64,000 nucleotides of DNA from Patescibacteria group bacterium (lineage in GTDB: Bacteria > Patescibacteriota > Patescibacteriia > JACRDY01). A program made the position numbers and the translations under genes. The notes beneath the pieces were generated by a model. It worked only from the letters and a program-made list of their open reading frames with translations, made no database searches and was not told the origin of the DNA. Numbering within the stretch: the first letter of the stretch is position 1; every line of letters starts with the position of its first letter. Below are positions 6,902 through 25,525 of the stretch, piece by piece. The stretch spans positions 150,175 through 214,174 of the forward strand of contig JBAZFH010000001.1 in the NCBI GenBank assembly GCA_041653535.1, written 5' to 3'.

Positions 6902-6955
6902 TAATCGAGGCAAAAAAAGTTTTTATTTTTTGGTAAAATATAGTATAATAAGGCT

Positions 6956-9900
6956 ATGCAAAAAAAGGCGAACAAAGTAATTATTAGCTTATTGCTAGCG
7001 ATTTTTTGTTTGTTTTTATTTTTACCTTGGCATAGTATTTTAGCGCAAGATTTGGGTGGAGGAGAGGTTGTTTATGGACCGGAAAATAATCCTAACCCCA
7101 TAACTCCGGCAACACCGGCTGGTGCCGCAGTCATGGTTACTGATATTATTAACAATACGGCAGCGAATATTAAAGAGGTAATAACTTCAATAAGGCAAAA
7201 GATAGTGCAAGAATTGGAAGCTTCTTTGAAGTTTTCGTTGGTCAGTTCACTGGATCAAATGTCGCGGATGTTTGCTCACGAAGTAGCGCTTAAAGTTGCT
7301 CAGGGTCGCGACGGACTTCGGTCTTTCAAAGATGCCAGAACTTGGGAGCAAATCTGGACCGACACTTGGCAGTCGGGAGCCGGTGAATTTATCGGCACTT
7401 TTTCCGAAGACTTTTTTGGCGATTCCTCGATATTATGTAATCCCAATCCTTACGTCAGATTTTTTATTACTATTTCTTTGTTTGAAACAGAAGTACCTAC
7501 GCCAAAATGCGACTGGCGTGAAATTCAAGAAGCCTATACCGGTCTTGCCGAACAAAGCCCGAAAGAGTGGTTGTCGCGTTTACAGTCTTCTTTCGAACCG
7601 AATCAGAGCGATGCCGGCGCTTTTTTGATCGCTCTTGATGAGCTGGAAAAGGAAAAAAATAAAAAAATTGAAGCTAATTTTACTCCGCTGTCAGTGGATT
7701 TTTCCGGTCGCTATCTGGATAACACTAACGCCGGAAAATTTTTGACAGAAAGCAGAAAAGATCTGGAGTGGTTTGTCCAGACGTCTTTTGTCGACATGCC
7801 TAGGGATATAGCGGTTGGTAAAAGCCTTACCGCTATTACGGTTGGTTCGATTCTTGCTCCCGCCATTCAGCAGTTTTCTCAAACCTATATATCCGAAGTG
7901 ATGAAAACAGCCCTCAAAGATTTATGGGGACTGAAAGATCCTTGTGATATAAAAGATAAAAAAGGTCAGGCGGTGATTTCTTGGTGCGACGACGATGGCG
8001 CTCACGAGCAGGGTCCTCCGGGCGGTACGGGTACCGGTTATGCCGGCAGTTATAATCAGACAGAGCAAGAAGCGCAAAATACGCTATCTTCTCTTTTGGT
8101 AACCAAAGTTAGACTGGGCGGTGAATACGATATTGTCAGCGAGCTCGCGGCTTGTCCGAATCAATATCCAAATTTGAATAATTGTACTATTAACCAGGGT
8201 TTTGCTGACGCAATTTTTCAAGAAATGACTCTTCAGTCAGCCGTGGATCAGGGGTTGGTGGACGGCAATTGGGCTTTTGGTTATAGCTCCCCGCAGACCG
8301 GTCTGGAGCCCGGTCCGGATGACGGTATTTCTCAGAGCAATATCAAAAAATTGCGAAAATATAGAATCGTGCCAACCGGTTGGGAACTGGCGGCAAATTT
8401 GATTAAGCAAATTTCAGAAGAGCAAAAATCAAACAATACCAAATCTTTACGTTCACTAATGGAAGATTTTTATAAAACCGGTCCTAATAAAATTTGCGAC
8501 GGTTTTGCCGATGACGGCAGTTTAGTTGATTCAGAAGAAAGTCCGTTTTGCGGTCTGGTTGACCCGGAATGGGTGCTCAAAGCACCGCAACAAAAATGTA
8601 CCGCCCTTGCTTACGGACCGATTCATATTACCGGCGGGATGCGTCAGGAAGATTGCGCCAACACGGTAGATTGTATTTTGGAAAACGACGACGGCAGTTG
8701 TCGTTCTTGGGGACAATGTACGCGGGAACGCAATATTTGGTGGTTTGACGGTGATAGTTGTCCGGCGCAATATGATAGCTGTCAAGAATTTGCTCGCACC
8801 TCTGATAGTCAGAAATTTAGTTATCTTAAAAACAGTTTGCAATATACGCAGTGTAATTCTGCCAACGCCGGTTGCAAATGGTATGCCGTGCAAAAAGACG
8901 GTGATAATTGGCAGAAATCATCAGGTATTTATTTCGATCGTGATGTCGAAGAATGTAATGAATCAAATGCCGGTTGTAACGCGGTAATCCGCAGCTATTC
9001 CGGATCCGGTACCAACCTGGTAGTCAACGGCAGTTTTAGCGATTATTATATCGCCAATGACGGAGATGAAAAAAATTATCATTTTTACGATTGGACTTAT
9101 AATGGTAGTGGAAAATTGGTTCCAGAAGAAGGAGACGTGGCATCTAAAGGTTCTGTGATTATTCCTGCTGGCGGTCGGATCGAACAAAGTGTTGATGCCG
9201 GATATTACCTTGGCGGCAGGACGTTCATTATGGCTTTTGACGGTCAAAATTGCGGCAGTAACACGGCGATTCAGTTTGCCGCGGTCAATACTACTCTTGG
9301 AGCCATTGCCGCTGATGCGGATTTAACGCAGTGGAATTCTTATTCCATTACTTATACTTTCCCGGCAAATACCAGCGCTCACGTCATGGATTTTAAATTT
9401 TTATCGGTTTCCGATTCATGCCATTTTGACAATATCCAAATAGAGGAAGGTAAAATCAGCAGTGGTTATCGCGAATATGGTAATAATAATATTGCCTATC
9501 TAAAAATAGCTCCGGAATATTTAAACTGTGACGGTAGCGCTACAGAGCCTGGCGAATGCGATAATTACGCCCCGACATGTTCTGCCGATGATGTTGGTTG
9601 CCAAAATTATACCGATTTGTCGGACAGTACTGTTATTCCCGGTGTAGTAACCGACGAAGATTATTGTCCTGCTGAGTGCGCTGATTATAAAACCTACAAA
9701 CAAACAGCTTCCAATTTCTTTAAAGAAAAATTTCCCGTGTATTTTATTGCCAGCACCGCTACCAGCTGTTCGGCAAAACAATCTGGTTGTGAAGAATTTA
9801 CCAATTTAGACAATTTGGCTGCCGGCGGAGAGCAAAGGGAAGATTATTCATTTTTGCGCCGTTGTCAAAAACCGGCACCATTTAGCGGTGACTGCGAGTC

Positions 9901-12900
9901 TTATTATACCTGGGAAGGCAGCGAGGCGACCGGTTATCAGTTAAAACTTTATACTCTCAAAGGCGATCCTACCGGCACTGCCGGATCGCGTTCGCCTTTT
10001 ACCATTACTGTTGTTGATCATCCGGTGGATTGTCAGGCTTATTACGGAAAACAGCCGGGAGATGAAAACTATGATGCTTTTATATCTGGAAACTGCAAAG
10101 AATTTTATGACCAAAAAGGACAGCTTTATTATCGGCTTTTAGCAGATACGGTTTTATGTACCAGCGACTGTCATCCTTATCGTTTGACTACGGTACAAAA
10201 CGGCGTTGATTTCTTTGATAAAGCTGACTGCGTCGCTTCCGGCGGATTGGTAACGCAATGTGAATATAACGGCGCTGACGGCGCTATCAACACCACTTCT
10301 TGTATTGCTCAGGGAGGTATTCACTACAACGGTATTTGCTACAATTTAAATAGCGCTAGTGCTTGTACTAGCGTGGGAGGTAATAGATTTGAAGATTATG
10401 CCAGCCAATGCCGATATTTGGCAACCGCCAGCGGCAGCGTTAAATGTTCCGCTCCTGGCTGTCAGGCGTATAAAGGTAATTTTGCCGGCAACAAACGTTT
10501 GGTTTTTGAGGACGGGTTTGACGGTGCGCAGGTAAATGACCAGTTGGTTGATAAATGGTCTGGCGGTATCGTTGTCAGTGAAGCTTATTCGGTTGGCTAT
10601 CATTCTTATCGTAATTTGGATTTAAGCAGCGCCGAGGTCACCCGTTCATTAGAAGTAAAAAATACTGACGGTAATGTAATTGATTATGAGGCAAGGCAGG
10701 GTCAGTTTTATACTCTGTCTTTTTGGGCAAAATCAATGCAGGAGAACAGTCAAATCAAAATATATCTTTCCGGAGTCATCGGTTCAGATCAAGAAAATGA
10801 TCCTTGGAGCTATTTTGACTACGGCAGTGATGATGCCGGTGCTGGTTATCAGGCGACTGTTTTTGGTAACGAGTGGCGTTATTACCAGCTTGGTCCGGTG
10901 TTTGTTGATTGGTCGGCGAACAACGCTAGTTTGGTTTTTGAAAAAATTAACAGTAATTTTTATATCGACAATGTTAAGCTGGAAGAGGTAAAAGATACGG
11001 CTTATTTGATTCGTAATAGCTGGAAAACCCCAACTGCCTGCGATCAAAATCACTCCGGGGCAGCCGCGCCGCAATATATGTTGGGCTGCAAAGCCTATCA
11101 GGACAGCAATAACGCTTTGCAATACTTCAAATCATTTACTCGTTTGTGTGAGCAATCGGTAATCGGCTGCGAGGCGGTGATTAAGACCTATAATTCTTCT
11201 TTGCCCTATCAACAGGTATTTAATCGTACTTGTTCTCTTGACGCCGCTTGTTCGCCGTGGGAAGGAGATACTAGCTGTCCTTGTTCGATTAGTCGCGACG
11301 GTGGTACGGTAGAGGTCTGTAAAGTAGCCTCCGGCGCAACCAATTGCCTTTATACTTATACTGAACCTTCGGCGATGATGACTTCTGGCGGCGCTGCCGA
11401 GGTGAATGTGGCGCACGATAAATTTATTTTTGTAGTCAATAAATCTCAGTATTCTTGTACTGCCGACGATCGTGGTTGCAGTGTCGTTGCTGAGCCGGAA
11501 GTCGGTCAAGACGATCAGTTGATTATGGATGGTAGTGGAATAAAGATTAAAGAAACAAAATATTTCCGTAACAATCCCGATAAATACGATACTGATCTTT
11601 GTACCGCCGATGCTTTTGGTTGCGACGAGTTTAGCGCGGCTGTCGAAGGGTTAAACCCGATTTATTTCAAAGATCCGCGAGACAAGCTGTGTGAGTACAA
11701 GCAGCATCCGACTTACGGTTCTTATGGTTGGTATAAAAAAGGCACAAATGAAGCGTGTCCGGAAAGTGCATATGAAATAGCCACAACCTGTCATTATGAC
11801 GCGATTCTCGGCGGTTGGAAGAAAAATCTGACAGATGATGAAGTTTGTGAGTACAAAAACTCGGCGTGGTATAACAAAGATACCGACACTCTTTGTGTTT
11901 ATAACACCACTACTCTGGCAACCAAGGTGGGAGATTGTGTTGCGCCGACTACCACTTTAGGTTGGGCAAAACAGTGTCCGAGCAAATACACCAGTTGTAC
12001 CAAATTTGTCGATCCGGTCGGTAGCTCCCAGCAAGACAATAATGTTTATTATTATTTGGATAATAATAATTTAAACCGTAATGAATGTTCTGCCGGTTCT
12101 TCTCAGCGAGAAGGTTGCGTGCTTTTCAATAATTACAACACAATTGACTGGAAATCAGCGGAAAAAAATCTTTCCTGGACGCCGCCGTTAAATAAAAGCG
12201 CGGCAGCTACTTATCAAAAAAGTGACGAGGAAGCTAATGGCAGAAAAGTGTCTCCGGTAAACTGCGCTAATGAAGCTACTGCTGGCAACGACTGGAAATA
12301 TTGCGGAGAAAACGAAGCCAACGATTTAATCAAGGTTCGTCGCGACCGTGTTTGCGCTGAATGGATTGATTGCGAAAGTACTTACGAAACTTTTGACAAT
12401 GAAACCGGTAAATTCGTGCCGATTTGTCTGAAAACCATGCCTTGCACTCAAAAAGACCCTGGAGAAGGCGAGTCCGGAGTTTTGAAATGTCGCAGTCAAG
12501 AAGCGATAAAACCGCAATACGGCGCCACGTTTATGCTTTGGGCTCCAGGTCAAAATTGTGGCAACGGATCTGTAAATACCGGTGAAGAATGCGATGATGG
12601 CAATAACACTGATGGTGATGGTTGTACTTCTGATTGTAAAAAAGAACCGGTAGTGTTTCGACCTTTGAGTAAATCCGAAGGTATGGCATCCGCGTACAGC
12701 GTTAACGGACCGCTTGATATTAACAAATATCTGAATCGTTCGCTTAAATGGGACGGCTATGAATATTCCGGTTATTCGATCGCTGATTTGCGTCCGGCTT
12801 GGTCGCTGCACCAAATCGCCAAAGGAACATGTAAAAACGATCCGAACAAGGTTTGCTATTTTAGCAAGGACTGCGGCGGCGCAGAATGCGTTTTCGGGTC

Positions 12901-15721
12901 TGATTATGAACTCGCGTATGTTGATATTGATATTAATGGTAATACTAATATTTATGGTGTTGACGCCGGAGGCGTTAAAATAAATAAAGAATGTCGAGGT
13001 TATCCTGATCAAGCCGCGCCTTTCCGCAAGGGTTTGGCAGACAATAGCGCTTTTAATAAAGCTAATCTATGTAGCATTACAGGAGACTGTGATTGTAGTT
13101 ATATTAAATGGGACGTGAATGATGCGGCGACCGCCTTTTTGCCGATTGATTATACTCCAAAAGAAGTTAATGGAGGCGTCTATGATCGGATTTGCACGCA
13201 AGCGGTAAAAGATGGTCCTAAAGTTGTTGGCGATCCGTGCCGGGTAGATAGTGACTGCATGTCTCCGGAGGACGAGCCGGATTATGTTAGCTCTGATTCT
13301 GGTACTTCCTATCTTCCTTATGTCGATCCGGTTAATGGTGGGCAGACAGCGCCGGCAACCCCCAGCCCGTATGATGTATGTAAAAGACCAACCAAAGAAC
13401 TAAAATATCTGGGCTGGAAGGGGTATTGTTTGGAAAAAATAAAAAATGTGGCAATTAACGGTGCGGCGAACGAACATCCTTGTTTAACCTGGATGCCGAT
13501 AGATCTGTTGCAGGGAGAGGCCGATTCGTACAGTAATATGCCGACAGCTGAGGCTGATATTGCTAATAATCAGCATTATTATTGTTTGGCAGCCGACGGT
13601 AATGCGCCATATGTCAAAAATATTATCAATAATTATGGCAGCAGTTATAGTAATCTAAAAAATTGTGCCACTGGCTATTCGAGTCCGGATTGTGCTTTTG
13701 CCTGGTACGGCACCGAAATAAGCGGAAATACTTTTTCTCCGACTAAAACTCTTCCCGAGGCAAGAATTGTTACCGATATAACGAATGGATCCAGTCTAAA
13801 AATAGAAGTGCAGCCAACCAGCGAACAAGGTTCAACCTTTATGGAGTGGCAGCCGACTGATACGCAGGCATTTAATAAAAACGACGTCAAAGCGATGTCT
13901 TTCGAGATAATAGATGCTGTTGAGAGCTGCCAGGATTCAACCACTAAATCTTGGCCGCAAGATATTTTGACCGGTGAACAAGGTACTGGCGGTTGTGTTG
14001 GAAGAAAAGTAGTATTTTTTAATGATATAAACGATCGCACTACTTTCTATCGTCAAAAGGCTGACGGAGTGAATTTATACGGACGAGGAGTCAGGGCAAG
14101 CGCGGCAATGACTTATAACTATCCTAATAAAATAATAAAGACTCAAAACGCATCTTTGGAATATTATTGGGATCAGCACGAGTCTACTCTTCCCGAGGAT
14201 CAAGAGCCGGAAATTTTGCCCAACAGGTCGTTTCATGTTTATCATTATGCCAAGTTTCAAACCGGTAATAACTATAGCGAGGTCTGGATTTACACAACTA
14301 GTATATTTAGGAACGATGCGGAGTGTCCCGGATGGAATATTTTTGATCCTCTTTTCAAGATCGGTTGTCACCACGGACCATCCGGACAAATACAAGTTTG
14401 GTGGGATAAAAACGGTTATTTAAGTCGAATCATATTGATTGCGGAAATACATGATAACAACGCTTATTATCAAGTGAAGCCATTAGTGTATTTCAAAGAA
14501 AACTGTCGTGAGCTGGTAAGAGTCACTCCTGACACTGCCCAGGCATCGTCGGTAAAAATGACATCTGTTTGGACTGATAGAATTTGGCAAGAATCAAAAG
14601 CTAATTTCAAAGTTAAAGATTTGAAATACGGTCTTAGCGGCAATCGTACCGAACCGTTTGGTCGTTCTTACTATACTTCGGGTATTATCCCCGCAGAACA
14701 GGAATACAATATCGAAGATGGTAATACAATAGATGCCGGTATGCCGTATGGCGGAGCGTTATCCACCGGCAATAAGGTGTCGTCTTATTGTTTGGGCGGC
14801 GGTTCGAAAAACGGAGATGTTTGTCTGACATCCGACGACTGCACTAATAGTAGTTGGATTGGTATTTGTATCGGTGCAAAACCGCGGGTAACCGGGGAAA
14901 ATTACGTCGAGGGCACGCTCGCTACCGCCAAGGATCGTTTATCTGATATTTTCGCGCGTTCATACGGTGTTTTCTATGAGCAGCGCGATAATGATCAGTT
15001 TGGTGAATGGATCGAGGGAAACAATAGTACAAATGGTTGGGATAAACGCAGGGAATACGGTCATGGTGACGCGCCGATAATTCGTGGCGTGTTGTTATCT
15101 GACACAGAACAGTCAAGCGGTAATTTTGCTATTATCGGCGACGGTGACGAAGGTAGCAGTGCCGATAACTGGATCAGTGTTAACTATTCTCAGAATTCCA
15201 ACCTGATATCCAGAGGTCAGTATTGGGCGTTTATCAATTTTTACGCTTATAACAAAAGCGGCGAGCATATGCCGCTACGACAGATTAAAGTTGATTGGAA
15301 GGGTAACGGCAGCGATATCTATGCTTTGAATGAAGACGATGCCATAGCTTATGCTAATTATAAACCGCATTGTGCTGGCGACTCTGATGCAGCGGATAAT
15401 TTTGGTGATGTTTTGGGCGTATCGTGTAAAGAAAACTTTTTCTCTTTTGAACATATTTATACTTATGATCCGACTGACTATACCACCTTTAAATCAAGCT
15501 GTACTGATGGTTCCGGTCAAAAATACATAGTCGACGATTCGGTTTTCGGCACTTATTCCGGTCCGTGCAATGTTTATAAGCCAAAAGCCCAGGTAACCGA
15601 CAACTGGGGAATTTGCGGTGATGGTTGCGGTAGCGGAGCGTGTTTGGATAGCGAATGTGCGCTCAATCATGGCTGGGCGGCTTATCCGAAAAATATTATA
15701 GTTTTACCGCCACAAAAATAA
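6956..15721 (+). CDS. giant secreted/surface protein (2,921 aa), Cys-rich with CxxCDDGNxxDGDGC-type repeat
   Basis: Uninterrupted 8.7-kb ORF. N-terminal signal peptide with AQD cleavage context. >100 Cys. Motif NCGNGSVNTGEECDDGNNTDGDGCTSDCK. Opposite-strand ORFs inside it are short. Confidence 0.75.
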   Translation: MQKKANKVIISLLLAIFCLFLFLPWHSILAQDLGGGEVVYGPENNPNPITPATPAGAAVMVTDIINNTAANIKEVITSIRQKIVQELEASLKFSLVSSLDQMSRMFAHEVALKVAQGRDGLRSFKDARTWEQIWTDTWQSGAGEFIGTFSEDFFGDSSILCNPNPYVRFFITISLFETEVPTPKCDWREIQEAYTGLAEQSPKEWLSRLQSSFEPNQSDAGAFLIALDELEKEKNKKIEANFTPLSVDFSGRYLDNTNAGKFLTESRKDLEWFVQTSFVDMPRDIAVGKSLTAITVGSILAPAIQQFSQTYISEVMKTALKDLWGLKDPCDIKDKKGQAVISWCDDDGAHEQGPPGGTGTGYAGSYNQTEQEAQNTLSSLLVTKVRLGGEYDIVSELAACPNQYPNLNNCTINQGFADAIFQEMTLQSAVDQGLVDGNWAFGYSSPQTGLEPGPDDGISQSNIKKLRKYRIVPTGWELAANLIKQISEEQKSNNTKSLRSLMEDFYKTGPNKICDGFADDGSLVDSEESPFCGLVDPEWVLKAPQQKCTALAYGPIHITGGMRQEDCANTVDCILENDDGSCRSWGQCTRERNIWWFDGDSCPAQYDSCQEFARTSDSQKFSYLKNSLQYTQCNSANAGCKWYAVQKDGDNWQKSSGIYFDRDVEECNESNAGCNAVIRSYSGSGTNLVVNGSFSDYYIANDGDEKNYHFYDWTYNGSGKLVPEEGDVASKGSVIIPAGGRIEQSVDAGYYLGGRTFIMAFDGQNCGSNTAIQFAAVNTTLGAIAADADLTQWNSYSITYTFPANTSAHVMDFKFLSVSDSCHFDNIQIEEGKISSGYREYGNNNIAYLKIAPEYLNCDGSATEPGECDNYAPTCSADDVGCQNYTDLSDSTVIPGVVTDEDYCPAECADYKTYKQTASNFFKEKFPVYFIASTATSCSAKQSGCEEFTNLDNLAAGGEQREDYSFLRRCQKPAPFSGDCESYYTWEGSEATGYQLKLYTLKGDPTGTAGSRSPFTITVVDHPVDCQAYYGKQPGDENYDAFISGNCKEFYDQKGQLYYRLLADTVLCTSDCHPYRLTTVQNGVDFFDKADCVASGGLVTQCEYNGADGAINTTSCIAQGGIHYNGICYNLNSASACTSVGGNRFEDYASQCRYLATASGSVKCSAPGCQAYKGNFAGNKRLVFEDGFDGAQVNDQLVDKWSGGIVVSEAYSVGYHSYRNLDLSSAEVTRSLEVKNTDGNVIDYEARQGQFYTLSFWAKSMQENSQIKIYLSGVIGSDQENDPWSYFDYGSDDAGAGYQATVFGNEWRYYQLGPVFVDWSANNASLVFEKINSNFYIDNVKLEEVKDTAYLIRNSWKTPTACDQNHSGAAAPQYMLGCKAYQDSNNALQYFKSFTRLCEQSVIGCEAVIKTYNSSLPYQQVFNRTCSLDAACSPWEGDTSCPCSISRDGGTVEVCKVASGATNCLYTYTEPSAMMTSGGAAEVNVAHDKFIFVVNKSQYSCTADDRGCSVVAEPEVGQDDQLIMDGSGIKIKETKYFRNNPDKYDTDLCTADAFGCDEFSAAVEGLNPIYFKDPRDKLCEYKQHPTYGSYGWYKKGTNEACPESAYEIATTCHYDAILGGWKKNLTDDEVCEYKNSAWYNKDTDTLCVYNTTTLATKVGDCVAPTTTLGWAKQCPSKYTSCTKFVDPVGSSQQDNNVYYYLDNNNLNRNECSAGSSQREGCVLFNNYNTIDWKSAEKNLSWTPPLNKSAAATYQKSDEEANGRKVSPVNCANEATAGNDWKYCGENEANDLIKVRRDRVCAEWIDCESTYETFDNETGKFVPICLKTMPCTQKDPGEGESGVLKCRSQEAIKPQYGATFMLWAPGQNCGNGSVNTGEECDDGNNTDGDGCTSDCKKEPVVFRPLSKSEGMASAYSVNGPLDINKYLNRSLKWDGYEYSGYSIADLRPAWSLHQIAKGTCKNDPNKVCYFSKDCGGAECVFGSDYELAYVDIDINGNTNIYGVDAGGVKINKECRGYPDQAAPFRKGLADNSAFNKANLCSITGDCDCSYIKWDVNDAATAFLPIDYTPKEVNGGVYDRICTQAVKDGPKVVGDPCRVDSDCMSPEDEPDYVSSDSGTSYLPYVDPVNGGQTAPATPSPYDVCKRPTKELKYLGWKGYCLEKIKNVAINGAANEHPCLTWMPIDLLQGEADSYSNMPTAEADIANNQHYYCLAADGNAPYVKNIINNYGSSYSNLKNCATGYSSPDCAFAWYGTEISGNTFSPTKTLPEARIVTDITNGSSLKIEVQPTSEQGSTFMEWQPTDTQAFNKNDVKAMSFEIIDAVESCQDSTTKSWPQDILTGEQGTGGCVGRKVVFFNDINDRTTFYRQKADGVNLYGRGVRASAAMTYNYPNKIIKTQNASLEYYWDQHESTLPEDQEPEILPNRSFHVYHYAKFQTGNNYSEVWIYTTSIFRNDAECPGWNIFDPLFKIGCHHGPSGQIQVWWDKNGYLSRIILIAEIHDNNAYYQVKPLVYFKENCRELVRVTPDTAQASSVKMTSVWTDRIWQESKANFKVKDLKYGLSGNRTEPFGRSYYTSGIIPAEQEYNIEDGNTIDAGMPYGGALSTGNKVSSYCLGGGSKNGDVCLTSDDCTNSSWIGICIGAKPRVTGENYVEGTLATAKDRLSDIFARSYGVFYEQRDNDQFGEWIEGNNSTNGWDKRREYGHGDAPIIRGVLLSDTEQSSGNFAIIGDGDEGSSADNWISVNYSQNSNLISRGQYWAFINFYAYNKSGEHMPLRQIKVDWKGNGSDIYALNEDDAIAYANYKPHCAGDSDAADNFGDVLGVSCKENFFSFEHIYTYDPTDYTTFKSSCTDGSGQKYIVDDSVFGTYSGPCNVYKPKAQVTDNWGICGDGCGSGACLDSECALNHGWAAYPKNIIVLPPQK

Positions 15722-15746
15722 CTAAAAACCTTTAGTCAAAAATATC

Positions 15747-18605
15747 ATGACGCAATGGTTTAAAAAGAAAATTTTGCAAAAAAGAACAACGACCGCGGTG
15801 GTTACGGTTTTGATTTTAGTTGTTATTTTTTTGGTCTTGCCGCAAGTAACTCACGCCTCTTCAATATCGGAAACAATGTCTGAACTAATGGCATCCATTG
15901 TTAACGGTTTGGGTAAACTCTGTGTGATGATAATTGATGCCGTGGTTTATATCGCTTCTTATGATTCTTTTGTTATTTCCGCGCCAGTGATATACGGCTG
16001 GGTGATTATTCGTGACATTTGTAACATGTTTTTTATTTTGATTTTGTTGATCATCGCTTTAGCGACCATATTACGTCGCGATAGTTATAATTATAAATCA
16101 TTACTGCCAAAAGTGTTGATTTTGGCGTTATTAATCAATTTTTCCAAAACCATTTGTGGCTTTGCTGTTGATATTGCCCAGATAGTGATGTTGACGTTTG
16201 TTAACGGTTTCAAAGACATGGGTCCGGGTAATCTGATGAAAATGGCGGGAGTGGACAGGATGTTGTCTTTTAGTTCTACGGCGGTTCAGGTCAAATCCGA
16301 AAGTGGATCAAGTGCAACGGCTGATATTAGCGATAGTACTTTCGCTATTTATTTTTATGCCGTATTGTACCTGCTGACTTTATTGGCGGTGCTTTTAGTG
16401 ATGGCAGTGATATTGATTTTCCGCATCGTAATACTTTGGTTTTTGATTGTTATTTCGCCGATATTTTTTCTATTACTATCCTTTCCTCATGGAGAAAGCT
16501 ATGCCAAAGAATGGTCTAACGAGTTTGTTAAAGCGTTAATAGTCGGTCCGGTGTTGGCTTTTTTTATCTGGTTATCAATGGCAAGCATGGGTTATATGGT
16601 AAGCGCTGCCGGTGATGGCGGTGACGCTTTATCGGTTGATTCAACTTCTGATAGCACAATAGAGGCGACGCTTTCGGCTGGCGATGGAGCTTCGGGAACG
16701 CCCGGGTTTTTTACCAATTTTTGCGTCGCGACAATCATGCTGATAGCGGGTGTAATACAGGCGCAACAAATCGGCGGTGCGGGCGGTGCGGCAGCGTTTC
16801 GTGCTGTCGGCAAGGCGAAAGCTTTGGGTTTGAAGACTGCTAAAGCTGGAATTGGTCTTACTAAAAGTGCGGTCGGAGTCGGTTGGCAGGCAACTAAAAT
16901 TGGTGCCGGTGCGGCCGCTTTATACGGATATTCGAAAACCGGTTATGATCTTTCTCAATTTACTCCAAGTAAATTAAAAGAAAGGGCAAGCGAGGCCTTG
17001 GAGGGCGCGCGTGAAAGGCTGGAGGGTAGAGGAGCTAAAGAACGGGATCGCAGAGCAGCACAAAACCTTTCAGAAGGAAAGTCTCGCATTGAGGCATGGA
17101 AAGATCCGGCAGGAACATTTGCTCGGCAGATTGCGACTAACGGTTTTTGGTCCGGTACAAAAGGGGCTGTAAAAGATATTTTTGTCGCTAAACGCAGTGC
17201 CGCAAAAATTCAGAAAGACATTGATGATGCTAATGATCAGAAAAAACAATACCAAGATGTTTCCAATAAAAGAAATGATATCAATAATGTTCAAAGCCAA
17301 AGGGAAGCCGTGAGGAGTCAGCTAGCTGATATTGATGAAAAAATCAAGAGCGGTGCATTGTCTGCCGATAAGGCGCTGGAAGCTAAGAAGCAAAAAATGG
17401 ACCTTATTTTACGTAACGGTGATTTAGAGAAAGAAGAAACTAAATTGAAAGCAGAAGAGGCATCATTACTCAGCGGTTTGAATATTAATAAAGAAATTGA
17501 TGTGATGGAGCAGCAGTTGGATGGTTTGGAGAAAGGTTATGGTATATCGGCAAATAATGATAGAAGAGCTAAACAAGCGCAAGATGCCGTTAAAACTAAA
17601 GCCGAAGCTGAAGCTCGGGGTGATAGTGCCGCTGCCGCTGCCGCTCAAACTTTTCTTGATAAAATTTCTGATTATGAAGAAACCAAAAAGACCGTTGATA
17701 GTAGAGCGGCGCTACTTGGTCAGCGCGGCGTTTTGGGTAACATCAGCAGTCTTAATCAAAAAACTAATTCTTTGAGTAAAGAGGCGGCAACGATTAAAAC
17801 CCCGTCAGAATATACTCGTGCTCGAAGAGAAGCGGTGCAAAAGTCAGTAGAAAATTTGCCAGATGATCTGAACGATGTTGACGTGATTAAACAAGCGGTA
17901 GCCGATGCTATTGGTGATCATGATGGCAGCGCTTTGGAAATTTTACTCAATAAAGCGATGCAAAACGGGCAAATGGACGATGTTTTGATGAATCAGGGAT
18001 TTAGTGCTGATGACCAAGGATTAAAAGCGCTTCGTGATAAATATATGACGGTTTCCAAAGATCAGGGTGGTATGGGTATGAAATCGGCCGAAGCTAATAG
18101 AATCATTGGCGAATTGGAACGCCTTGCTTGGACAAAGGATCACGATCATTATGCTGCTGGCGTGGTGAACGAAGCAGGATATTATAGAGACAGAACCAAG
18201 GAAGAACAAATGGCTATACGCACGCAGAAGTCAGAAAAAGGCATGGGTAAAAGTGTTAATTTTTGGCGCCAAAGCAACGGTTCCGAGCTGGGTCATTCGC
18301 GCGCCGACGGTAGTTTTGAGGCGGACACCGCTGGTTATGCTATTGTGGCTAAAAATTTCAAAACTTTAGCTCAAGCAGTTATAGCCGGAACAGCCAGCTC
18401 TCAGATGATGGGAAAACTAAAATCAATGGTTGACGGAATACAGTCTTTGGTAAGACAGGGTGTTATTGATCATAAAGATTCATCAAGGGTTGTTGAGATA
18501 ATCAGAGAATCCAGAGTTCCTGCTTCTGGTCAAAAGTCGGTGATAAAACTTTCCAGAGAGTTTAATGATTCGATAGAGAAAGCTTTAAATAAGGGAAGAA
18601 AATAA
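15747..18605 (+). CDS. VirB6/TrbL-like polytopic membrane protein with long C-terminal coiled-coil extension
   Basis: Signal/TM at the N-terminus, then ~6 TM helices in the first 330 aa. A Gly-rich linker follows, then ~550 aa of K/E/A/D-rich coiled-coil. It sits where PrgH/VirB6 sits in Gram-positive T4SS operons. Confidence 0.5.
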   Translation: MTQWFKKKILQKRTTTAVVTVLILVVIFLVLPQVTHASSISETMSELMASIVNGLGKLCVMIIDAVVYIASYDSFVISAPVIYGWVIIRDICNMFFILILLIIALATILRRDSYNYKSLLPKVLILALLINFSKTICGFAVDIAQIVMLTFVNGFKDMGPGNLMKMAGVDRMLSFSSTAVQVKSESGSSATADISDSTFAIYFYAVLYLLTLLAVLLVMAVILIFRIVILWFLIVISPIFFLLLSFPHGESYAKEWSNEFVKALIVGPVLAFFIWLSMASMGYMVSAAGDGGDALSVDSTSDSTIEATLSAGDGASGTPGFFTNFCVATIMLIAGVIQAQQIGGAGGAAAFRAVGKAKALGLKTAKAGIGLTKSAVGVGWQATKIGAGAAALYGYSKTGYDLSQFTPSKLKERASEALEGARERLEGRGAKERDRRAAQNLSEGKSRIEAWKDPAGTFARQIATNGFWSGTKGAVKDIFVAKRSAAKIQKDIDDANDQKKQYQDVSNKRNDINNVQSQREAVRSQLADIDEKIKSGALSADKALEAKKQKMDLILRNGDLEKEETKLKAEEASLLSGLNINKEIDVMEQQLDGLEKGYGISANNDRRAKQAQDAVKTKAEAEARGDSAAAAAAQTFLDKISDYEETKKTVDSRAALLGQRGVLGNISSLNQKTNSLSKEAATIKTPSEYTRARREAVQKSVENLPDDLNDVDVIKQAVADAIGDHDGSALEILLNKAMQNGQMDDVLMNQGFSADDQGLKALRDKYMTVSKDQGGMGMKSAEANRIIGELERLAWTKDHDHYAAGVVNEAGYYRDRTKEEQMAIRTQKSEKGMGKSVNFWRQSNGSELGHSRADGSFEADTAGYAIVAKNFKTLAQAVIAGTASSQMMGKLKSMVDGIQSLVRQGVIDHKDSSRVVEIIRESRVPASGQKSVIKLSREFNDSIEKALNKGRK

Positions 18606-18622
18606 GATTAAAATAAAAAATC

Positions 18623-19975
18623 ATGACAGATTTTAGCTTAACAGATTATCAAATATTGGAACAATTCCGTCGCGAGACAGACGAGATTTTAGTTACCAAT
18701 AATTTACGCGATGCGGTTAATTGCCTTACCACACTGCAAAAGACTATGGCTTATGACACAAAAATAAAGGATTACCCTGACATACTGGTTGAATATAATA
18801 AAATATTGAATAAACTGCGTTTAGTTGCTTTTGCTTCACTGGACTGGAACGAAGCTTTGTCTTTTTTGAAGAATAATTTTTTGGTTGCCCTGGAAAACAA
18901 GGAATTTATTGATCTAACCGATAAAATACGCAGCAAACTTGTTACTGTTCCGACGTTAGAGGAGAGAGATAACTATCGGATGCGTTTGCGTCGGGCGCTG
19001 ACACAAAACGGGGAAAGAATTACCTTTAAACCGTTAAAAGTAGGTGATCAGACTCAAGATCCGACAGTCGCCAACTGGCTCAAATTGTATTTGGGATCAT
19101 TGGGAGTTGAGTTGGTTAATCGCGTGACTTATCAGGGTTGGTTGTCACAAGAACAAAATATTCAGCAGTTAACGGAAGAAGAAAAGGAGAGAATAAAATA
19201 TCTTTTTGAAGTATATGAAGAATTAAAACTATCTTCCGTTTCAGTCGAAGGCTGCGAAGAAACTTTTGTTATCGATGAAGATACTGACACTCCTTTGGTG
19301 CTTTATCGCGGTAAAATAGAATCGGCTCTGCCACCGCAAGAAGACATTGATTTACTGAAAAAAATCGAAGCTGTTTTAAGCGGCAAACCAGTATCATTAT
19401 CCGCCCCAACAGGCGCGCCGTCACAGCCAGCCGTTATCTCGGCACCGATACCAGCAGTAGCAAAACCGGCAACGTCAGCTATTGATCGTGATGAGATAAT
19501 CCGTAAATATGAAGGTGATGTTAAAGAAAACAGAAGTATTGAAGACAGGATGACTCAATTTACCAAGACAACTGGCGGTAAGCAAAGAGAACTGGCAAAT
19601 AGTTTGAATTTGCTTTTGACCGGTGCTGCGCCAGATAAACTAGATATTATCGCTATCCTTTATATTTTAGCGAAAAAAAATGCGATGGAAGATTTGATTA
19701 AAGATGATGATCGTTTTTACAAGCTGGTTGAACAGGATCTGACCAGACGAGGCGGTAAACAACAACTTAATGATTTTAAGATGTATCCGACAGCACCCCA
19801 ATCTATTCGATATTTTCTTGAAGTTTTATTGCAGCACAAACTAAGGCTGTCAGAGGGTGAAGCGGCAAAGTGGGGGTTGCATATTGTTAATATTTTGAAA
19901 AAATCCGGCAATGAAAAATACGGAAAAATCGCTTATTTTGATTTGGAAGCAGGAGATTTTCGTTGGCAAAAATAG
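18623..19975 (+). CDS. hypothetical protein (T4SS-cluster associated)
   Basis: 450-aa soluble ORF in operon context with 4-17 nt spacing. No recognisable motifs. Confidence 0.5.
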   Translation: MTDFSLTDYQILEQFRRETDEILVTNNLRDAVNCLTTLQKTMAYDTKIKDYPDILVEYNKILNKLRLVAFASLDWNEALSFLKNNFLVALENKEFIDLTDKIRSKLVTVPTLEERDNYRMRLRRALTQNGERITFKPLKVGDQTQDPTVANWLKLYLGSLGVELVNRVTYQGWLSQEQNIQQLTEEEKERIKYLFEVYEELKLSSVSVEGCEETFVIDEDTDTPLVLYRGKIESALPPQEDIDLLKKIEAVLSGKPVSLSAPTGAPSQPAVISAPIPAVAKPATSAIDRDEIIRKYEGDVKENRSIEDRMTQFTKTTGGKQRELANSLNLLLTGAAPDKLDIIAILYILAKKNAMEDLIKDDDRFYKLVEQDLTRRGGKQQLNDFKMYPTAPQSIRYFLEVLLQHKLRLSEGEAAKWGLHIVNILKKSGNEKYGKIAYFDLEAGDFRWQK

Positions 19976-20084
19976 GTTTGCAGTGTTAGATCGTGAAAAC
20001 GACGGAGTAAATGGCGCAAAAAGGCATTATTATTACCCTTGCTTTTTTTGCTCTTGCGCTCTTGTCTTTTAAAAACAAGCTATT

Positions 20085-21248
20085 ATGGTAGTAACTAATA
20101 TACAAGATGAAATTTTGGTCAAAGACAGCGGCGGTAATTTTTCTGTTTTAGTTGATCAATCAAATGTCGGTTACGATGCTGTTGGAGGGTCGGCAATCAC
20201 TCCGGTATTAACCGAAGACAATTTTGATTTTTCAGCATTAATTGATAAAATAAAGGGGCAGTTTAATCTAGGCTGGAAAGACGAAGTGTTGGACCGACGC
20301 TTGTATAATATTATTATTGCCATGGTGCGCGAAGTACGCAATGATATCCAGACCAAAGACGTTATGGTCAAAAGTGTTGAAGTAGGCGGGTTGGGTTTGG
20401 AGCCTATCATTGCCGATCAGGTGATTGCGGAGGTAAAAAAAACAGCGCGACATCCAATTAAGGTAAAAGAAATGGGCAGAAAAGTTTTAAGCATGGTAAC
20501 GGCAAAAACACCGTCACATGTTTTTTCTCGTCAGGAGCTAGACCATGAGATTGCTCCACCACCACCAACTGTTGTAGTTCCAACAAAAGCAGAACAGATT
20601 AGACCAATATCGCCGCTTGCGCCGAAGCCGCCAGTGCAGTCTGTCACTTATGTTGAAAAAAATTTTTTGCCAAAAAAATCAGTACCAAGGATAGAGGAGA
20701 TAAAAAAAGAAGCAAGTATCAGTAATACGCCAAAACCAACTGCCGAACACCATCTGTCGTCAAAAGCGAAACCGTTTATGGACAGTAAGCCGCCTTTTAA
20801 GATTGATTTTGGGGTAAAAACTAAGGGTCGTAATTTTGACGGTTTAGCGTCCGCACCGCAGGCAAGAGTGGTAATGCCAAATCGAGGGGAAAAAATAACA
20901 GATATTAGAGTTCCTCAAAAAAAATTAGTTGGTCCGCTGGAAGAGCTGCAGGGGTTTCGTGTCGCCGATTTTCGTCGGCTTGACCTTGATCCGCAGAAAG
21001 CGATTTTAAAAATAAAAGAAAAAATTGATTTACTCGGCAGAGAGTCTTTTAGCAAGAGGATTGAGGGCAAAAATGCTTGGCAGCAAAGTGAAGTTAACCG
21101 TCTTTATTTGGCATTGGGAAAGGCAAGTATCGAGCAAGGCAGGTCGCTAGCTGATATTATAAAAGAAAGGTCTTTAAAACAAGAACCGACGTTAAAACCA
21201 GAAGAATTCATCGCCTTGGTCAAATTAAATCAAATTTTAGAAGATTAG
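20085..21248 (+). CDS. hypothetical protein with Pro/Lys-rich central linker (T4SS-cluster associated)
   Basis: 387-aa ORF. Central PPPPTVVVPTKAEQIRPISPLAPKPP low-complexity linker. Stop overlaps the start of the PrgI-like gene. Confidence 0.5.
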   Translation: MVVTNIQDEILVKDSGGNFSVLVDQSNVGYDAVGGSAITPVLTEDNFDFSALIDKIKGQFNLGWKDEVLDRRLYNIIIAMVREVRNDIQTKDVMVKSVEVGGLGLEPIIADQVIAEVKKTARHPIKVKEMGRKVLSMVTAKTPSHVFSRQELDHEIAPPPPTVVVPTKAEQIRPISPLAPKPPVQSVTYVEKNFLPKKSVPRIEEIKKEASISNTPKPTAEHHLSSKAKPFMDSKPPFKIDFGVKTKGRNFDGLASAPQARVVMPNRGEKITDIRVPQKKLVGPLEELQGFRVADFRRLDLDPQKAILKIKEKIDLLGRESFSKRIEGKNAWQQSEVNRLYLALGKASIEQGRSLADIIKERSLKQEPTLKPEEFIALVKLNQILED

Positions 21249-21249
21249 T

Positions 21250-21717
21250 ATGGCTCATCAGTTTTTGGTGCCACAATTCATCGACGTCGAGCCAAAAATT
21301 ATCGGTCCGATAACGGTACGGCAGTTTATTTTGATGGTAATCGCCATGGTGATAATTTTTATATTTTATAAATTTTCCACTTTTTGGACTTTTATTATCG
21401 CTACGGTTTTGATTTTAGGATTGTTTGGGGTTTTGGCCTTTGCCAAAATTAACGGTCGACCGTTTCATTATTTTATTTTAAATATCGTTGAAACATTAAA
21501 GCGTCCTCGACTGAAGGTTTGGGACAAAACATTGGATATGGAGGAAGTAAAAGCATTAATGGCTTATGGGACTCAAATAAAAAAGGTTGAACAAATAGCT
21601 AAAAAAGAGCCGTTAGCAGAGTCGCATTTGGAAGAACTGTCTTTGATTGTTAATACCGGCGGCGCCTATCAGTCTAGTGAATTAGATTTAAATTATGACA
21701 CCAGAAAAGAAAAATAA
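21250..21717 (+). CDS. PrgI/TcpE-family (VirB3-like) small membrane protein
   Basis: The N-terminus VPQFIDVEPKIIGPITVRQFILMVIAMVI matches the PrgI-family signature (vP.di..e.ki.G.t.RQ). It has two TM helices and lies immediately upstream of VirB4. Confidence 0.55.
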   Translation: MAHQFLVPQFIDVEPKIIGPITVRQFILMVIAMVIIFIFYKFSTFWTFIIATVLILGLFGVLAFAKINGRPFHYFILNIVETLKRPRLKVWDKTLDMEEVKALMAYGTQIKKVEQIAKKEPLAESHLEELSLIVNTGGAYQSSELDLNYDTRKEK

Positions 21718-22372
21718 AAAAGCTTCAACCAGAAAAGCGGTTCCGATCGGGGAAATCCGCAACGATACTTTAGTAATGAAGGATGGTACTTTGCGTGCCG
21801 TTTTGATGGTTTCGAGTATTAATTTTGCTCTAAAATCAGCTGATGAGCAACAGGCGATCATCTCTGCCTATATGCAATTTTTGAACTCTATTACTTATCC
21901 AATCCAGATAGTGATCCAATCGCGTCGGATTAATATCGATAAATATTTGGAAAAGTTGCAGAAGATGGAAAAAGAGCAAGTAAATGAATTACTTAAGATT
22001 CAAATTGTCGATTATCGCAAATATGTTTCCGAGTTGGTCGAATTAGGCGATATTATGACTAAAAAGTTTTATATTGTCATACCTTACAATCCACTTTCAG
22101 ATAAGCAAAAATCTTTTTTTTCTCGATCAAAAGATTTGCTTTCGCCAAAAACTATTATCAGCTTAAGTGAGAAAAAGTTTTTCGAAAGGGAAAAGGAGTT
22201 ATCCCAGCGTGTATCTCATGTCGCTTCAAGTCTGGGTAGTATCGGTTTAGCGGTCACTCGCGTTGATACGCAGGGTTTAATAGAATTGTTCTATAATTCA
22301 TACAATCCTGACGTGGCAGAGCATGAGAGAATGGTCGATGTGAACAAGATTCGTTTCGATAATATAACCTAA
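21695..22372 (+). CDS. VirB4/CagE/TrbE N-terminal domain protein (separate ORF)
   Basis: LVMKDGTLRAVLMVSSINFALKSADEQQAIISAYMQFLNSITYPIQIVIQSRR matches the VirB4 N-terminal domain pattern (KDGS..R...G.D..S..E..L..LN.aLrrL....v.rR). It ends in TAA 5 nt before the ATPase ORF, in a different frame. Confidence 0.65.
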   Translation: MTPEKKNKKASTRKAVPIGEIRNDTLVMKDGTLRAVLMVSSINFALKSADEQQAIISAYMQFLNSITYPIQIVIQSRRINIDKYLEKLQKMEKEQVNELLKIQIVDYRKYVSELVELGDIMTKKFYIVIPYNPLSDKQKSFFSRSKDLLSPKTIISLSEKKFFEREKELSQRVSHVASSLGSIGLAVTRVDTQGLIELFYNSYNPDVAEHERMVDVNKIRFDNIT

Positions 22373-22377
22373 AAAAC

Positions 22378-24213
22378 ATGGCAATTATTAAAGAGAAAAA
22401 AACACTTTCCCAAGAGGTGGAAAGCAGTAAGGAAGTCTTGCAAGAAGAGCAGCGCTATCGAGCGGGGACCATTTCCGTTATTGATTTAATAGCGCCGGCG
22501 GCAATGGATGTTCAACCTACTTATTTGCGTCTAGGAACAAGGTTCGCGAGAACTATTTTTGTTGTTAGCTATCCTCGTTATATCGGTATTGGTTGGTTTT
22601 CTCCGATTATAAACTTTAACCATCCCCTGGATGTTTCGATGTTTTTTTATCCGATAAAGGCCGCTGCTATTTTAAAAGATCTGAAAAAAAGAGTCGGTAA
22701 TCTGGAGGCGGAAATAATGGCTGATCGCGACAAAGGGGCTCCGCGCGATCCGATAAAAGAAACGGCTTTGCAGGATATAGAAAAGTTAAGAGATGATTTA
22801 ACTCAAGGCATAGAACACTTTTTCCAATTTGCTTTGTATGTTACTATTTACGCGGAAACAAAAGAGGAATTAGATGATTTAACCGGAGACATAGAAGACG
22901 TTTTTGGTTCTCGTCTGGTTTATTCGCGAAAAGTTTTATATCAAGCTGAGCAGGGTTTTAACTCGACATTGCCTTTTGGTCAAGATGAGTTGGCAATATT
23001 TTTTAACATGAATACCTCTCCCTGTGCCTCGTCATTTCCTTTTATTTCTTTTGAACTTTCTTCCAACGACGGCATCATGTATGGTATTAATCGCCATAAT
23101 AATAGTTTAATTATTTTTGATCGATTTTCTTTACAGAATGCCAACATGGTCGTTTTTGCCACTTCTGGCGCTGGTAAAAGTTATACGATAAAATTAGAGG
23201 TTTTGCGTAGCTTAATGTTTGGTATCGATGTTATTATTATTGATCCGGAAAAAGAGTACCTGCATCTTTGCGAGGCTGTGGGCGGCACTTATATCAATAT
23301 CTCCCTAGCTTCAAAAAGTAAAGTTAATCCTTTTGATTTGCCACGACCGATGGAAAAAGAGTTTAGCGGCGAAGACATTATTCGTTCGGCGGTTATCACT
23401 TTGAAAGGTTTAGTCAAATTAATGATTAGCAAGCTAAATTCTTCGGAAGATTCGGTGATGGACCGGGCGTTGCTAGAAACTTATGCTAAAAAAGATATTA
23501 CTCCTGATGCTAATTTAGCTGAAGTTGAGCCGCCGATTATGCAGGATTTAGTGGATATTTTAGAGGGGATGGAAGGCGGTGCCGATTTGGCTCAAAGATT
23601 GAAAAAATATACCGAAGGCACTTTTTCCGGGTTTTTGAACAATCCGACTAATGTTGATATGGATAACCAGTTGGTTTGTTTTTCGGTTCGCGACCTAGAG
23701 GATGAATTACGACCAATAGCCATCTATAACTTAGTAAACTATATCTGGAACGTTGTTCGTTCAGAGAGAAAAAAGAGGATTTTAGTTATCGACGAAGCTT
23801 GGTGGTTGATGCAAAACGAGGATTCGGCTAAATTTATTTTCGCTCTAGTTAAACGTTGCCGCAAATATTATTTGGGAGTAACTACTATTACTCAGGATGT
23901 GAACGATTTTTTACTCTCGCCATACGGTCAGGCAATAGTCAATAATTCGGCTTTACAACTGTTAATGAAACAATCGCCGGCAGCGATTGATCGGGTAAAA
24001 AATACGTTTTTATTAACTGACGGTGAAAAATATTTATTATTAGAATGTGGTGTAGGTGAAGGAATATTTTTTGCTGGCAATAAACACGCGGCGATTCAGG
24101 TGGTCGCTTCTTACGCTGAGGATCAACTGATTACTACTGACCCGCGGCAGTTGTTAGAAATTGAAGCGGCAAAAAAAGAGTTTGAAGCAGCGGGAGAGAC
24201 CGCATTACAGTAA
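22378..24213 (+). CDS. VirB4-family T4SS ATPase (PrgJ/TrbE-like), C-terminal ATPase portion
   Basis: Walker A FATSGAGKSY, the hallmark Walker B VIDEAWW, and RKYYLGVTTITQDVNDF (VirB4 motif). Confidence 0.85.
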   Translation: MAIIKEKKTLSQEVESSKEVLQEEQRYRAGTISVIDLIAPAAMDVQPTYLRLGTRFARTIFVVSYPRYIGIGWFSPIINFNHPLDVSMFFYPIKAAAILKDLKKRVGNLEAEIMADRDKGAPRDPIKETALQDIEKLRDDLTQGIEHFFQFALYVTIYAETKEELDDLTGDIEDVFGSRLVYSRKVLYQAEQGFNSTLPFGQDELAIFFNMNTSPCASSFPFISFELSSNDGIMYGINRHNNSLIIFDRFSLQNANMVVFATSGAGKSYTIKLEVLRSLMFGIDVIIIDPEKEYLHLCEAVGGTYINISLASKSKVNPFDLPRPMEKEFSGEDIIRSAVITLKGLVKLMISKLNSSEDSVMDRALLETYAKKDITPDANLAEVEPPIMQDLVDILEGMEGGADLAQRLKKYTEGTFSGFLNNPTNVDMDNQLVCFSVRDLEDELRPIAIYNLVNYIWNVVRSERKKRILVIDEAWWLMQNEDSAKFIFALVKRCRKYYLGVTTITQDVNDFLLSPYGQAIVNNSALQLLMKQSPAAIDRVKNTFLLTDGEKYLLLECGVGEGIFFAGNKHAAIQVVASYAEDQLITTDPRQLLEIEAAKKEFEAAGETALQ

Positions 24214-24230
24214 TTTTATAGAAAAAATAT

Positions 24231-24824
24231 ATGTCAAATAAAGTTAAACTAGCTTTAATGATTGGTGGTGCCGCAATTTTTATTCTTTTAGTAATTGCGC
24301 TTCTAATGCGAAATGGTACGACTGATGTCAATAATTTAAATCAAAGCACCAATCAGTTAAATAATCGGCTGCCTGAAACAAAAAATATTGTTGTTAATGA
24401 TAACAATGCCGTGGTAACCACAAAAGGTAATGCTACTACAATAACTGTCGAGCAAAAAGAGGAGATAAGCCTAGAGATAGTATCACGGTTTTTTGCTGAA
24501 AGGTTTGGTACTTATTCAAACCAAAGTAATTTTGAGAATATAAAAGATTTACAGTATTTAATGACCGAGGATGTGAAAAGTTGGTCGGAAAAATTTATCA
24601 GTCAGGGAAATATTAGCAGCGATCAATATTGGGGCGTAACTACTAAAGCGTTGGCTATTAAAAGTCAAGATATTAAAGCGGATACAGCGGTGATCGTTGT
24701 TTCTACTCAACGGCAAGAGTATTCCAGGGACGTTAATAAAGCCAAAATATATAAGCAGGATTTAAAGTTAGAATATGTAAAAAGTGACGGTAATTGGCTG
24801 ATCAGCGGTGTTTATTGGCAGTAA
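24231..24824 (+). CDS. membrane-anchored protein, possibly VirB8/PrgL-like (positional inference)
   Basis: N-terminal TM (LALMIGGAAIFILLVIALLM) plus a ~160-aa extracytoplasmic domain. It sits directly after VirB4, as PrgL/VirB8 does. There is no sequence-level proof. Confidence 0.45.
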   Translation: MSNKVKLALMIGGAAIFILLVIALLMRNGTTDVNNLNQSTNQLNNRLPETKNIVVNDNNAVVTTKGNATTITVEQKEEISLEIVSRFFAERFGTYSNQSNFENIKDLQYLMTEDVKSWSEKFISQGNISSDQYWGVTTKALAIKSQDIKADTAVIVVSTQRQEYSRDVNKAKIYKQDLKLEYVKSDGNWLISGVYWQ

Positions 24825-24871
24825 TTTGAAATTTTAGAAATTTTTAATCTGGTTTTTTCTATGATTAGAAT

Positions 24872-25525
24872 ATGAAGAAAATCAGATTAAAAGCAAATTT
24901 TTTACGAGACATTGTTTTTCCTAAAAACTGTCTGGGTTGTGCCAAAGAGGGGTGCTATATTTGTCCTCGGTGCCGAAACATGATCAAAATAGCCAGAAAC
25001 GATTTTATTGATTTTCCGGGAAAAAGATTTTTGGATCGAGTAGTGGTAACGGCTGATTATAATGATGAAATTTTACAACGAGCGATTCATTGTCTAAAAT
25101 ATCAATTTGCTACGGATGTAGCAGAGGAACTTGTCTCTTTGGTATCAGCAGATAAAATACCTTTATCTTGGAAGCACTGCGTTTTATTGCCGATTCCTTT
25201 GCACAAAAAAAGGGAACGATTACGAGGATTTAACCAAGCTGAACTTATTGCTATATTTTTATCCGAGCGTTTTGGTTTGTATTATAGAAATGATATTTTG
25301 AGTAGAATAAAATATCGTGTTCCGCAGATGTCTTTAGGTAGAAGCGAGAGGTTAAAAAATATCAAAGACATATTTTTTGTAGATAAAGACAATCTTTGCG
25401 GAATAAAAAACGTCGTTTTGGTTGACGACGTGGTTACGACGGGAGCTACTTTAAACGAAGCGGCAGAAGTTTTGAAAAAAAATGGTGTAGAAAATGTTGA
25501 GGCGATAGTACTTGGTCATGGATAA
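24872..25525 (+). CDS. comFC: ComF-family phosphoribosyltransferase-domain protein (ComFC)
   Basis: N-terminal Cys4 zinc finger (CLGCAKEGCYICPRC) and the PRTase motif VVLVDDVVTTGATL. Confidence 0.8.
   Translation: MKKIRLKANFLRDIVFPKNCLGCAKEGCYICPRCRNMIKIARNDFIDFPGKRFLDRVVVTADYNDEILQRAIHCLKYQFATDVAEELVSLVSADKIPLSWKHCVLLPIPLHKKRERLRGFNQAELIAIFLSERFGLYYRNDILSRIKYRVPQMSLGRSERLKNIKDIFFVDKDNLCGIKNVVLVDDVVTTGATLNEAAEVLKKNGVENVEAIVLGHG

Follow-up and report, generated by a model that had tools for sequence, protein, structure and literature searches.

Two adjacent genes for VirB4 in a chromosomal type IV secretion cluster of a Patescibacteria group bacterium

Is a virB4 that falls into two adjacent open reading frames (ORFs) a damaged gene, a switch, or simply two genes? 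The question arises from a type IV secretion system (T4SS) cluster in a stretch of 64,000 nt from a Patescibacteria group bacterium (assembly GCA_041653535.1, contig JBAZFH010000001.1). This whole stretch is called the window here, and its numbering is used for all features of the cluster. ORF1, a TrsD-like ORF of 225 aa (21695-22372, + strand), is followed by the 611-aa VirB4 core ORF, ORF2 (22378-24213, + strand), which starts with an ATG. An earlier reading made from the letters of the window, the sequence-only reading, had left three possibilities for this pair: a natural two-polypeptide VirB4, a phase-variable switch or a pseudogenising frameshift. We found both genes to be intact, conserved and complementary, with a conserved split point. 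The locus is very probably a standard chromosomal T4SS cluster of the Patescibacteria (Candidate Phyla Radiation, CPR), in which the VirB4 motor would be assembled non-covalently from the products of two adjacent genes after an ancient fission common with the pGO1/pSK41 branch. The remaining doubt concerns TrsD as a stoichiometric part of every protomer as against a looser accessory.

Conservation of the split and sequence of the junction

In a collection of 5.8 billion proteins, 4143 homologues of ORF1 were found. The best 120 of these (55-67% identity) were all stand-alone proteins of 195-251 aa, and their sources, where named, were Patescibacteria; the closest ones stemmed from metagenome-assembled genomes (MAGs) of this group. 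Searched with a profile, 1.84 billion cluster representatives yielded 3545 matches, and 149 of the best 150 were again stand-alone, with lengths from 130 to 443 aa. The alignment of the ORF1 family contained 43 invariant columns among 22 sequences.

The junction itself was compared in 80 related loci at 50-66% identity, taken from genomes of different species; downstream DNA was available for 79. In every one of these 79 the stop of the ORF1 homologue fell at one and the same protein position, and the ORF2 homologue opened with an ATG of its own. What lies between the two genes, here called trsD and virB4, varied from a 1-nt overlap to a spacer of 192 nt, with 1, 3, 5, 6, 2 and 9 nt as the commonest lengths; three apparent overlaps of 20-62 nt were artefacts of taking the first in-frame ATG. 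The two genes shared a reading frame in 27 loci and differed in 52, all three stop codons (TAA, TAG and TGA) were in use, and no conserved A-run was found at the junction among the 79 relatives. The sequence-only reading had proposed a comparison with orthologous clusters in sister genomes, and this comparison found the split conserved throughout. Together with the stand-alone cluster representatives and a published survey of the lineage (PMC12102498), it bears out the natural two-polypeptide VirB4 among the three possibilities.

In one kind of relative the two parts are joined. P0251, a protein of 898 aa, consists of a TrsD-like part (residues 1-223), a proline/alanine-rich linker and a VirB4 core (323-892) with 51% identity to ORF2. 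Its gene (for example L084, 4001-6697) occurs on five contigs that come from at least three samples; it immediately follows a PrgI-like gene, and no stop interrupts the junction. This natural fusion lends Rosetta-stone support to the notion that the TrsD-like part and the VirB4 core act together.

Low-complexity C-terminal tails rich in P, A, G and Q, 100-220 aa long, were seen in some TrsD-like proteins (P0131, P0160), and in one lineage, that of the 898-aa fusion, such a tail joins TrsD covalently to the VirB4 core. Some relatives had repeat-filled trsD-virB4 spacers of 77-192 nt (L035 6646-6837, L066 6658-6820, L007, L016, L017, L018 and L039): twelve tandem CGCATAA units in L035 and two units of about 60 nt with a GC hairpin in L066. 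A spacer length of about 105-108 nt was common to five loci. The virB4 homologue of one MAG (L027 6652-8082) has only about 476 aa where about 630 are usual; truncation or a frameshift may have shortened this copy. Many contigs with trsD-virB4 loci of the Patescibacteria type (L002, L006, L008, L009 and others) are titled 'uncultured Gammaproteobacteria' (TPA, third-party annotation, binchicken assemblies), which is probably a taxonomic mislabel.

The junction in the window (22370-22377, + strand) comprises the TAA stop of ORF1 at 22370-22372 and a 5-nt spacer, AAAAC, after which ORF2 starts in a different frame. Stops were located at 22360 in the frame of ORF2, at 22370 in that of ORF1 and at 22341, 22365 and 22389 in the third frame, so that all three frames are closed near the junction. 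In these respects the sequence-only reading, with a 225-aa ORF ending at 22370-22372, a core starting at 22378 in another frame and closed frames around both, was accurate. The frame of ORF2 is open for just five codons upstream of its ATG. Programmed frameshifting or read-through is not indicated at this junction, since the upstream part of the ORF2 frame is too short and in each relative virB4 starts from a separate ATG, at a variable distance. A scan of the junction for promoters and terminators gave nothing above shuffled expectation. None of 29 gene starts in the window (1125 to 57585) was preceded by a Shine-Dalgarno-like motif within 25 nt, and all 29 lie in A/T-rich leaders. The A-rich spacer at the junction is thus explained by a rule for gene starts of this window, A/T-rich leaders free of Shine-Dalgarno motifs.

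Two of the earlier possibilities are to be weighed against these data. The first-glance impression of a former single virB4 of about 840 aa, broken by a pseudogenising frameshift or by an assembly or sequencing indel, is understandable from two ORFs in different frames, 5 nt apart and beside a short A-run, and the existence of the fused 898-aa relative could be quoted in its favor. However, relatives at 50-66% identity keep the stop position and the separate ATG at all 79 junctions, with varied spacer lengths and frames, and nearly all of the best cluster representatives stand alone. Both ORFs are moreover strongly conserved, as judged from the invariant columns of ORF1 and the intact Walker motifs of ORF2, and no single indel would join them, because only five codons are open upstream and the stop survives changes of the A-run. 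We therefore regard a broken gene as extremely unlikely. A phase-variable ON/OFF switch by poly-A slippage had been suggested on the basis of a 7-A homopolymer at 22371-22377. A run is indeed present there, but it counts six A (22371-22376), base 22377 being a C, and it begins inside the TAA. Addition or loss of one or two A leaves this stop and both ORFs unaffected and alters the spacer length alone. With the run lying within and 3' of the TAA, slippage could therefore not act as a switch. The run is also absent in the relatives, and A-rich leaders without Shine-Dalgarno motifs are the norm here. Six bases are short for a contingency tract. A switch at this place is accordingly very unlikely. 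The finding is of use chiefly to annotators: in scans of CPR genomes this junction will go on being reported as a broken virB4, and the proper label is a trsD-like gene plus virB4, both intact.

Two complementary parts of VirB4

On models of full-length VirB4 proteins, the matches of ORF1 and ORF2 were colinear and did not overlap. NF045975, a model of 894 positions for VirB4 of Mycoplasma integrative and conjugative elements (ICEs), was matched by ORF1 at positions 97-228 and by ORF2 at 279-893, and TIGR00929 (792 positions) by ORF1 at 4-175 and by ORF2, from its residue 53, at 238-728. ORF2 further reached 354.4 bits with NF045971, the model of CD1110-family VirB4 (cut-off 325), covering model positions 176-730 of 752. 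ORF1 gave a weak match to Pfam TraC_F_IV, and the precomputed Pfam family of the exact ORF1 protein (P0001) is PF26593, 'TraC-like'. A complete N-terminal domain is absent from the ORF2 polypeptide, and ORF1 matches the part that it lacks. When the ORF1 family profile was compared with residues 1-228 of ORF2, no similarity emerged (hhalign probability 0.2%); ORF1 is therefore the missing piece and not a duplicate.

Structure comparison pointed in the same direction. When the AlphaFold2 model of ORF1 was submitted to Foldseek, the top 14 matches in the PDB were all TrwK/VirB4 chains of the R388 T4SS, with E values of 6e-4 to 1e-2, and the next match followed at 0.22. A sequence search of the PDB with the ORF1 profile gave chance matches only. 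For ORF2, assignment to the VirB4/TraC/CagE T4SS ATPases is based on the curated model, a Walker A motif GAGKS (residues 264-268; 23167-23181, + strand), a Walker B motif ILVIDE (residues 468-473; 23779-23796, + strand), homology to the VirB4 C-terminal domain and neighbouring genes for T4SS membrane components, among which the VirB6/TrbL match is below cut-off. By profile comparison, ORF1 and ORF2 are recognizable as two parts of VirB4, with a homology far beyond chance.

Where in VirB4 does the break fall? Residues 229-586 of ORF2 aligned with residues 7-388 of 4AG5, a crystallized VirB4 C-terminal domain (E 7e-49), and residues 256-560 with TrwK 446-740. The N-terminal domain of TrwK spans residues 15-400 (PMC9259494). 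Ahead of the region aligned with the C-terminal domain, ORF2 hence keeps another 210-228 residues or so, and since these belong to the N-terminal domain, ORF1 corresponds to roughly its first half. These alignments place the break inside the N-terminal domain of VirB4, roughly in its middle, rather than where this domain meets the ATPase domain. In these terms ORF1 is the first half of the N-terminal domain, detached from the rest, and ORF2 a core holding the second half of this domain and the C-terminal ATPase domain. The sequence-only reading had opposed an N-terminal domain to an ATPase core. It was right as to two parts of VirB4 but drew the line too far downstream, given the N-terminal-domain residues that ORF2 still holds.

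Known systems and the proposed assembly

The two-gene arrangement of VirB4 has already been described and is ordinary for this lineage. In the survey of Quinonero-Coronel et al. (2025, Microb Genom, PMC12102498), TrsD was the most abundant T4SS component of Patescibacteria, with 2272 homologues spread over 2221 assemblies and a VirB4 association for 1664 of them. There, TrsD was recognized as a remote homologue of the VirB4 N-terminus, with the pGO1 subclass of MPF_FATA as its only known occurrence outside Patescibacteria. We saw no essential difference between the Patescibacteria T4SS clade (PMC12102498, PMC10633639) and the present locus, which has the same gene pair in the same order, a PrgI/VirB3 neighbour and a chromosomal location. 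The system is biologically important: in Ca. Southlakia epibionticum, a cultivated Patescibacterium and the sole one tested, epibiotic growth requires the T4SS (Wang et al. 2023, PMC10633639), and the TrsD homologue of this organism is listed as essential (PMC12102498). Our data add minor points, namely the position of the fission within the N-terminal domain of VirB4, its occurrence in pSK41-type plasmids as well and its occasional reversal by fusion.

On the Staphylococcus plasmid pSK41, the gene of a 135-aa VirB3-like protein, TraC, overlaps trsD (227 aa) by 14 nt, and a 14-nt spacer separates trsD from the gene of the 672-aa VirB4-like TraE. pSK41 and the window hence share a VirB3-like gene overlapping a TrsD gene of about 225 aa, a short spacer and an N-terminally short VirB4. 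Residues 35-584 of ORF2 aligned to TraE 35-626 (E 9e-51, 25% identity). As this alignment starts from residue 35 in both proteins, pSK41 has the same split point. The profile of ORF1 met pSK41 TrsD with an hhalign probability of 86.7% (E 4e-6, 117 columns); the relation of ORF1 to TrsD of pGO1/pSK41 was detected at the profile level only. The two systems differ in their setting, the pSK41 system being plasmid-borne and conjugative, with a relaxase and a VirD4-like protein, whereas the cluster in the window is chromosomal and lies between housekeeping genes.

Stand-alone homologues of ORF1 with 25-29% identity were also encountered on plasmids of Bacillota. A Pontibacillus plasmid and C. perfringens pJFP838A both carry a small upstream gene followed by genes for TrsD-like (274 and 312 aa) and VirB4-like proteins (621 and 641 aa), the small gene being annotated as PrgI family in pJFP838A and as hypothetical in Pontibacillus. 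The cluster of this Pontibacillus megaplasmid (NZ_CP062975) also encodes a 'Mbov_0395 family pilin-like conjugal transfer protein' (L081 1249-1704), which recalls the VirB2-like pilins reported in T4SS clusters of Patescibacteria. TraD of the pELF plasmid was discarded as a comparator; it is an unrelated protein of the VirD4 type.

In domain content, the single-chain VirB4/TrwK of R388 and the CD1110-family VirB4 of ICEs from Firmicutes correspond to the sum of ORF1 and ORF2. They are made as one chain, whereas here the first 200 residues or so form a separate polypeptide. The opposite direction, fusion instead of fission, is represented by VirB3-VirB4 fusions, for example on Campylobacter plasmids, none of which was found in Patescibacteria (PMC12102498). 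The module of VirB3, VirB4 N-terminus and VirB4 core thus tolerates different covalent partitions. In R388, VirB3 wraps the N-terminal domain of VirB4, and the N-terminal domains mediate the VirB4 dimer contact (PMC9259494).

From these comparisons we infer the following course. The fission of VirB4 would be ancient and common to the pGO1/pSK41 branch (TrsD plus TrsE/TraE) of monoderm conjugation systems. The TrsD-like chain would pack non-covalently on the N-terminal part of the core and thereby rebuild an N-terminal domain of the VirB4 type. In doing so, it may supply part of the surface that VirB3 wraps in R388 and that mediates contacts between N-terminal domains. With the PrgI-like gene reaching 23 nt into trsD, and only 5 nt between trsD and virB4, translation of these genes may be coupled, and the proteins would then be made in roughly equimolar amounts. 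The assembled ATPase would then power the T4SS.

Several observations weigh against this proposal. Tight translational coupling is not universal, about a third of the relatives having spacers longer than 17 nt. The AlphaFold2 model of ORF1 is of moderate confidence (pLDDT, predicted local distance difference test, 67.5) and reaches only modest TM-scores with TrwK (0.36-0.45), the matched TrwK residues not being given by Foldseek. Against the curated NCBIfam model of TrsD/TraD, NF041427, ORF1 scored 32 bits (E 7.5e-8), far below the cut-off of 200; at the level of sequence profiles it is a remote TrsD homologue and not a member by this cut-off. Finally, TrsD is without assigned function (PMC12102498).

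This last point leaves room for the TrsD-like protein to be an independent accessory derived from the VirB4 N-terminus, for example an assembly chaperone or a regulator, that stays outside the motor protomer. TrsD homologues of Gracilibacteria, which often lie away from virB4 (PMC12102498), would be in line with it, and the low-complexity tails of some members and the long spacers in about a third of the relatives are compatible with a looser relationship. However, what TrsD supplies is precisely the segment missing from the VirB4 core, the adjacency of both genes is kept in 79 of 80 loci, a natural fusion exists and pSK41 is split at the same point, so that we hold an accessory outside the protomer to be quite improbable. 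A further possible arrangement would have TrsD as a separately dosed adaptor that binds only some of the VirB4 cores, for example those in contact with PrgI/VirB3, like VirB4-central in R388, and that sets the architecture or the assembly state of the T4SS. Independent regulation of this kind would fit the family members whose tails are long and disordered, and the spacers that are in some cases long and filled with repeats; we give such an adaptor a small chance. A two-chain VirB4 assembled non-covalently is the reading that we prefer.

The surrounding cluster

The genes around the pair form a conserved T4SS cluster and lie on the + strand as well. Synteny, that is conservation of order and strand, was counted out of the 80 loci, many of which end at contig ends. 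At the head of the cluster, a 952-aa membrane protein (15747-18605) is a candidate VirB6/TrbL-like channel subunit. Its Pfam TrbL match is weak (23.5 bits, cut-off 25.9), and a VirB6-like gene was syntenic in 39 loci. Next to it, a 450-aa protein (18623-19975) without Pfam or NCBIfam match was syntenic in 20 loci, and a conserved 387-aa protein (20085-21248) without family match was so in 75, directly 5' of the PrgI-like gene. The latter (21250-21717) encodes a small PrgI/VirB3-like membrane protein (Pfam PrgI 29.0 bits, cut-off 27), was kept in 79 loci and overlaps the start of ORF1 with its 3' end. The counts for the pair itself were 80 for the TrsD-like gene and 79 for virB4. Downstream of virB4, a 197-aa protein with a hydrophobic N-terminal segment (24231-24824) had no family match and was syntenic in 67 loci.

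The context of the cluster is chromosomal, with genes for a release factor, KsgA, Sua5 and RecG and with tRNAs among the flanking genes. Its GC content is flat, 39.8% as compared with 40.7% for the window. No relaxase or VirD4-type coupling protein was found among the cluster ORFs scanned (5942-25525), the scan having ended before the ORFs from 28684 onward.

Two further genes border the cluster. Directly 3' of it, a competence gene of the ComF/ComFC family (24872-25525, + strand) keeps its position in 49 of the 80 loci. Directly 5' of the VirB6-like gene lies an ORF of 2921 aa (6956-15721, + strand), whose sole matches were a cysteine-rich acidic repeat (residues 1866-1898) and a weak one to a spike-fibre domain of phages or gene transfer agents (GTA). 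Its product is possibly a very large surface protein with a link to the T4SS cluster.

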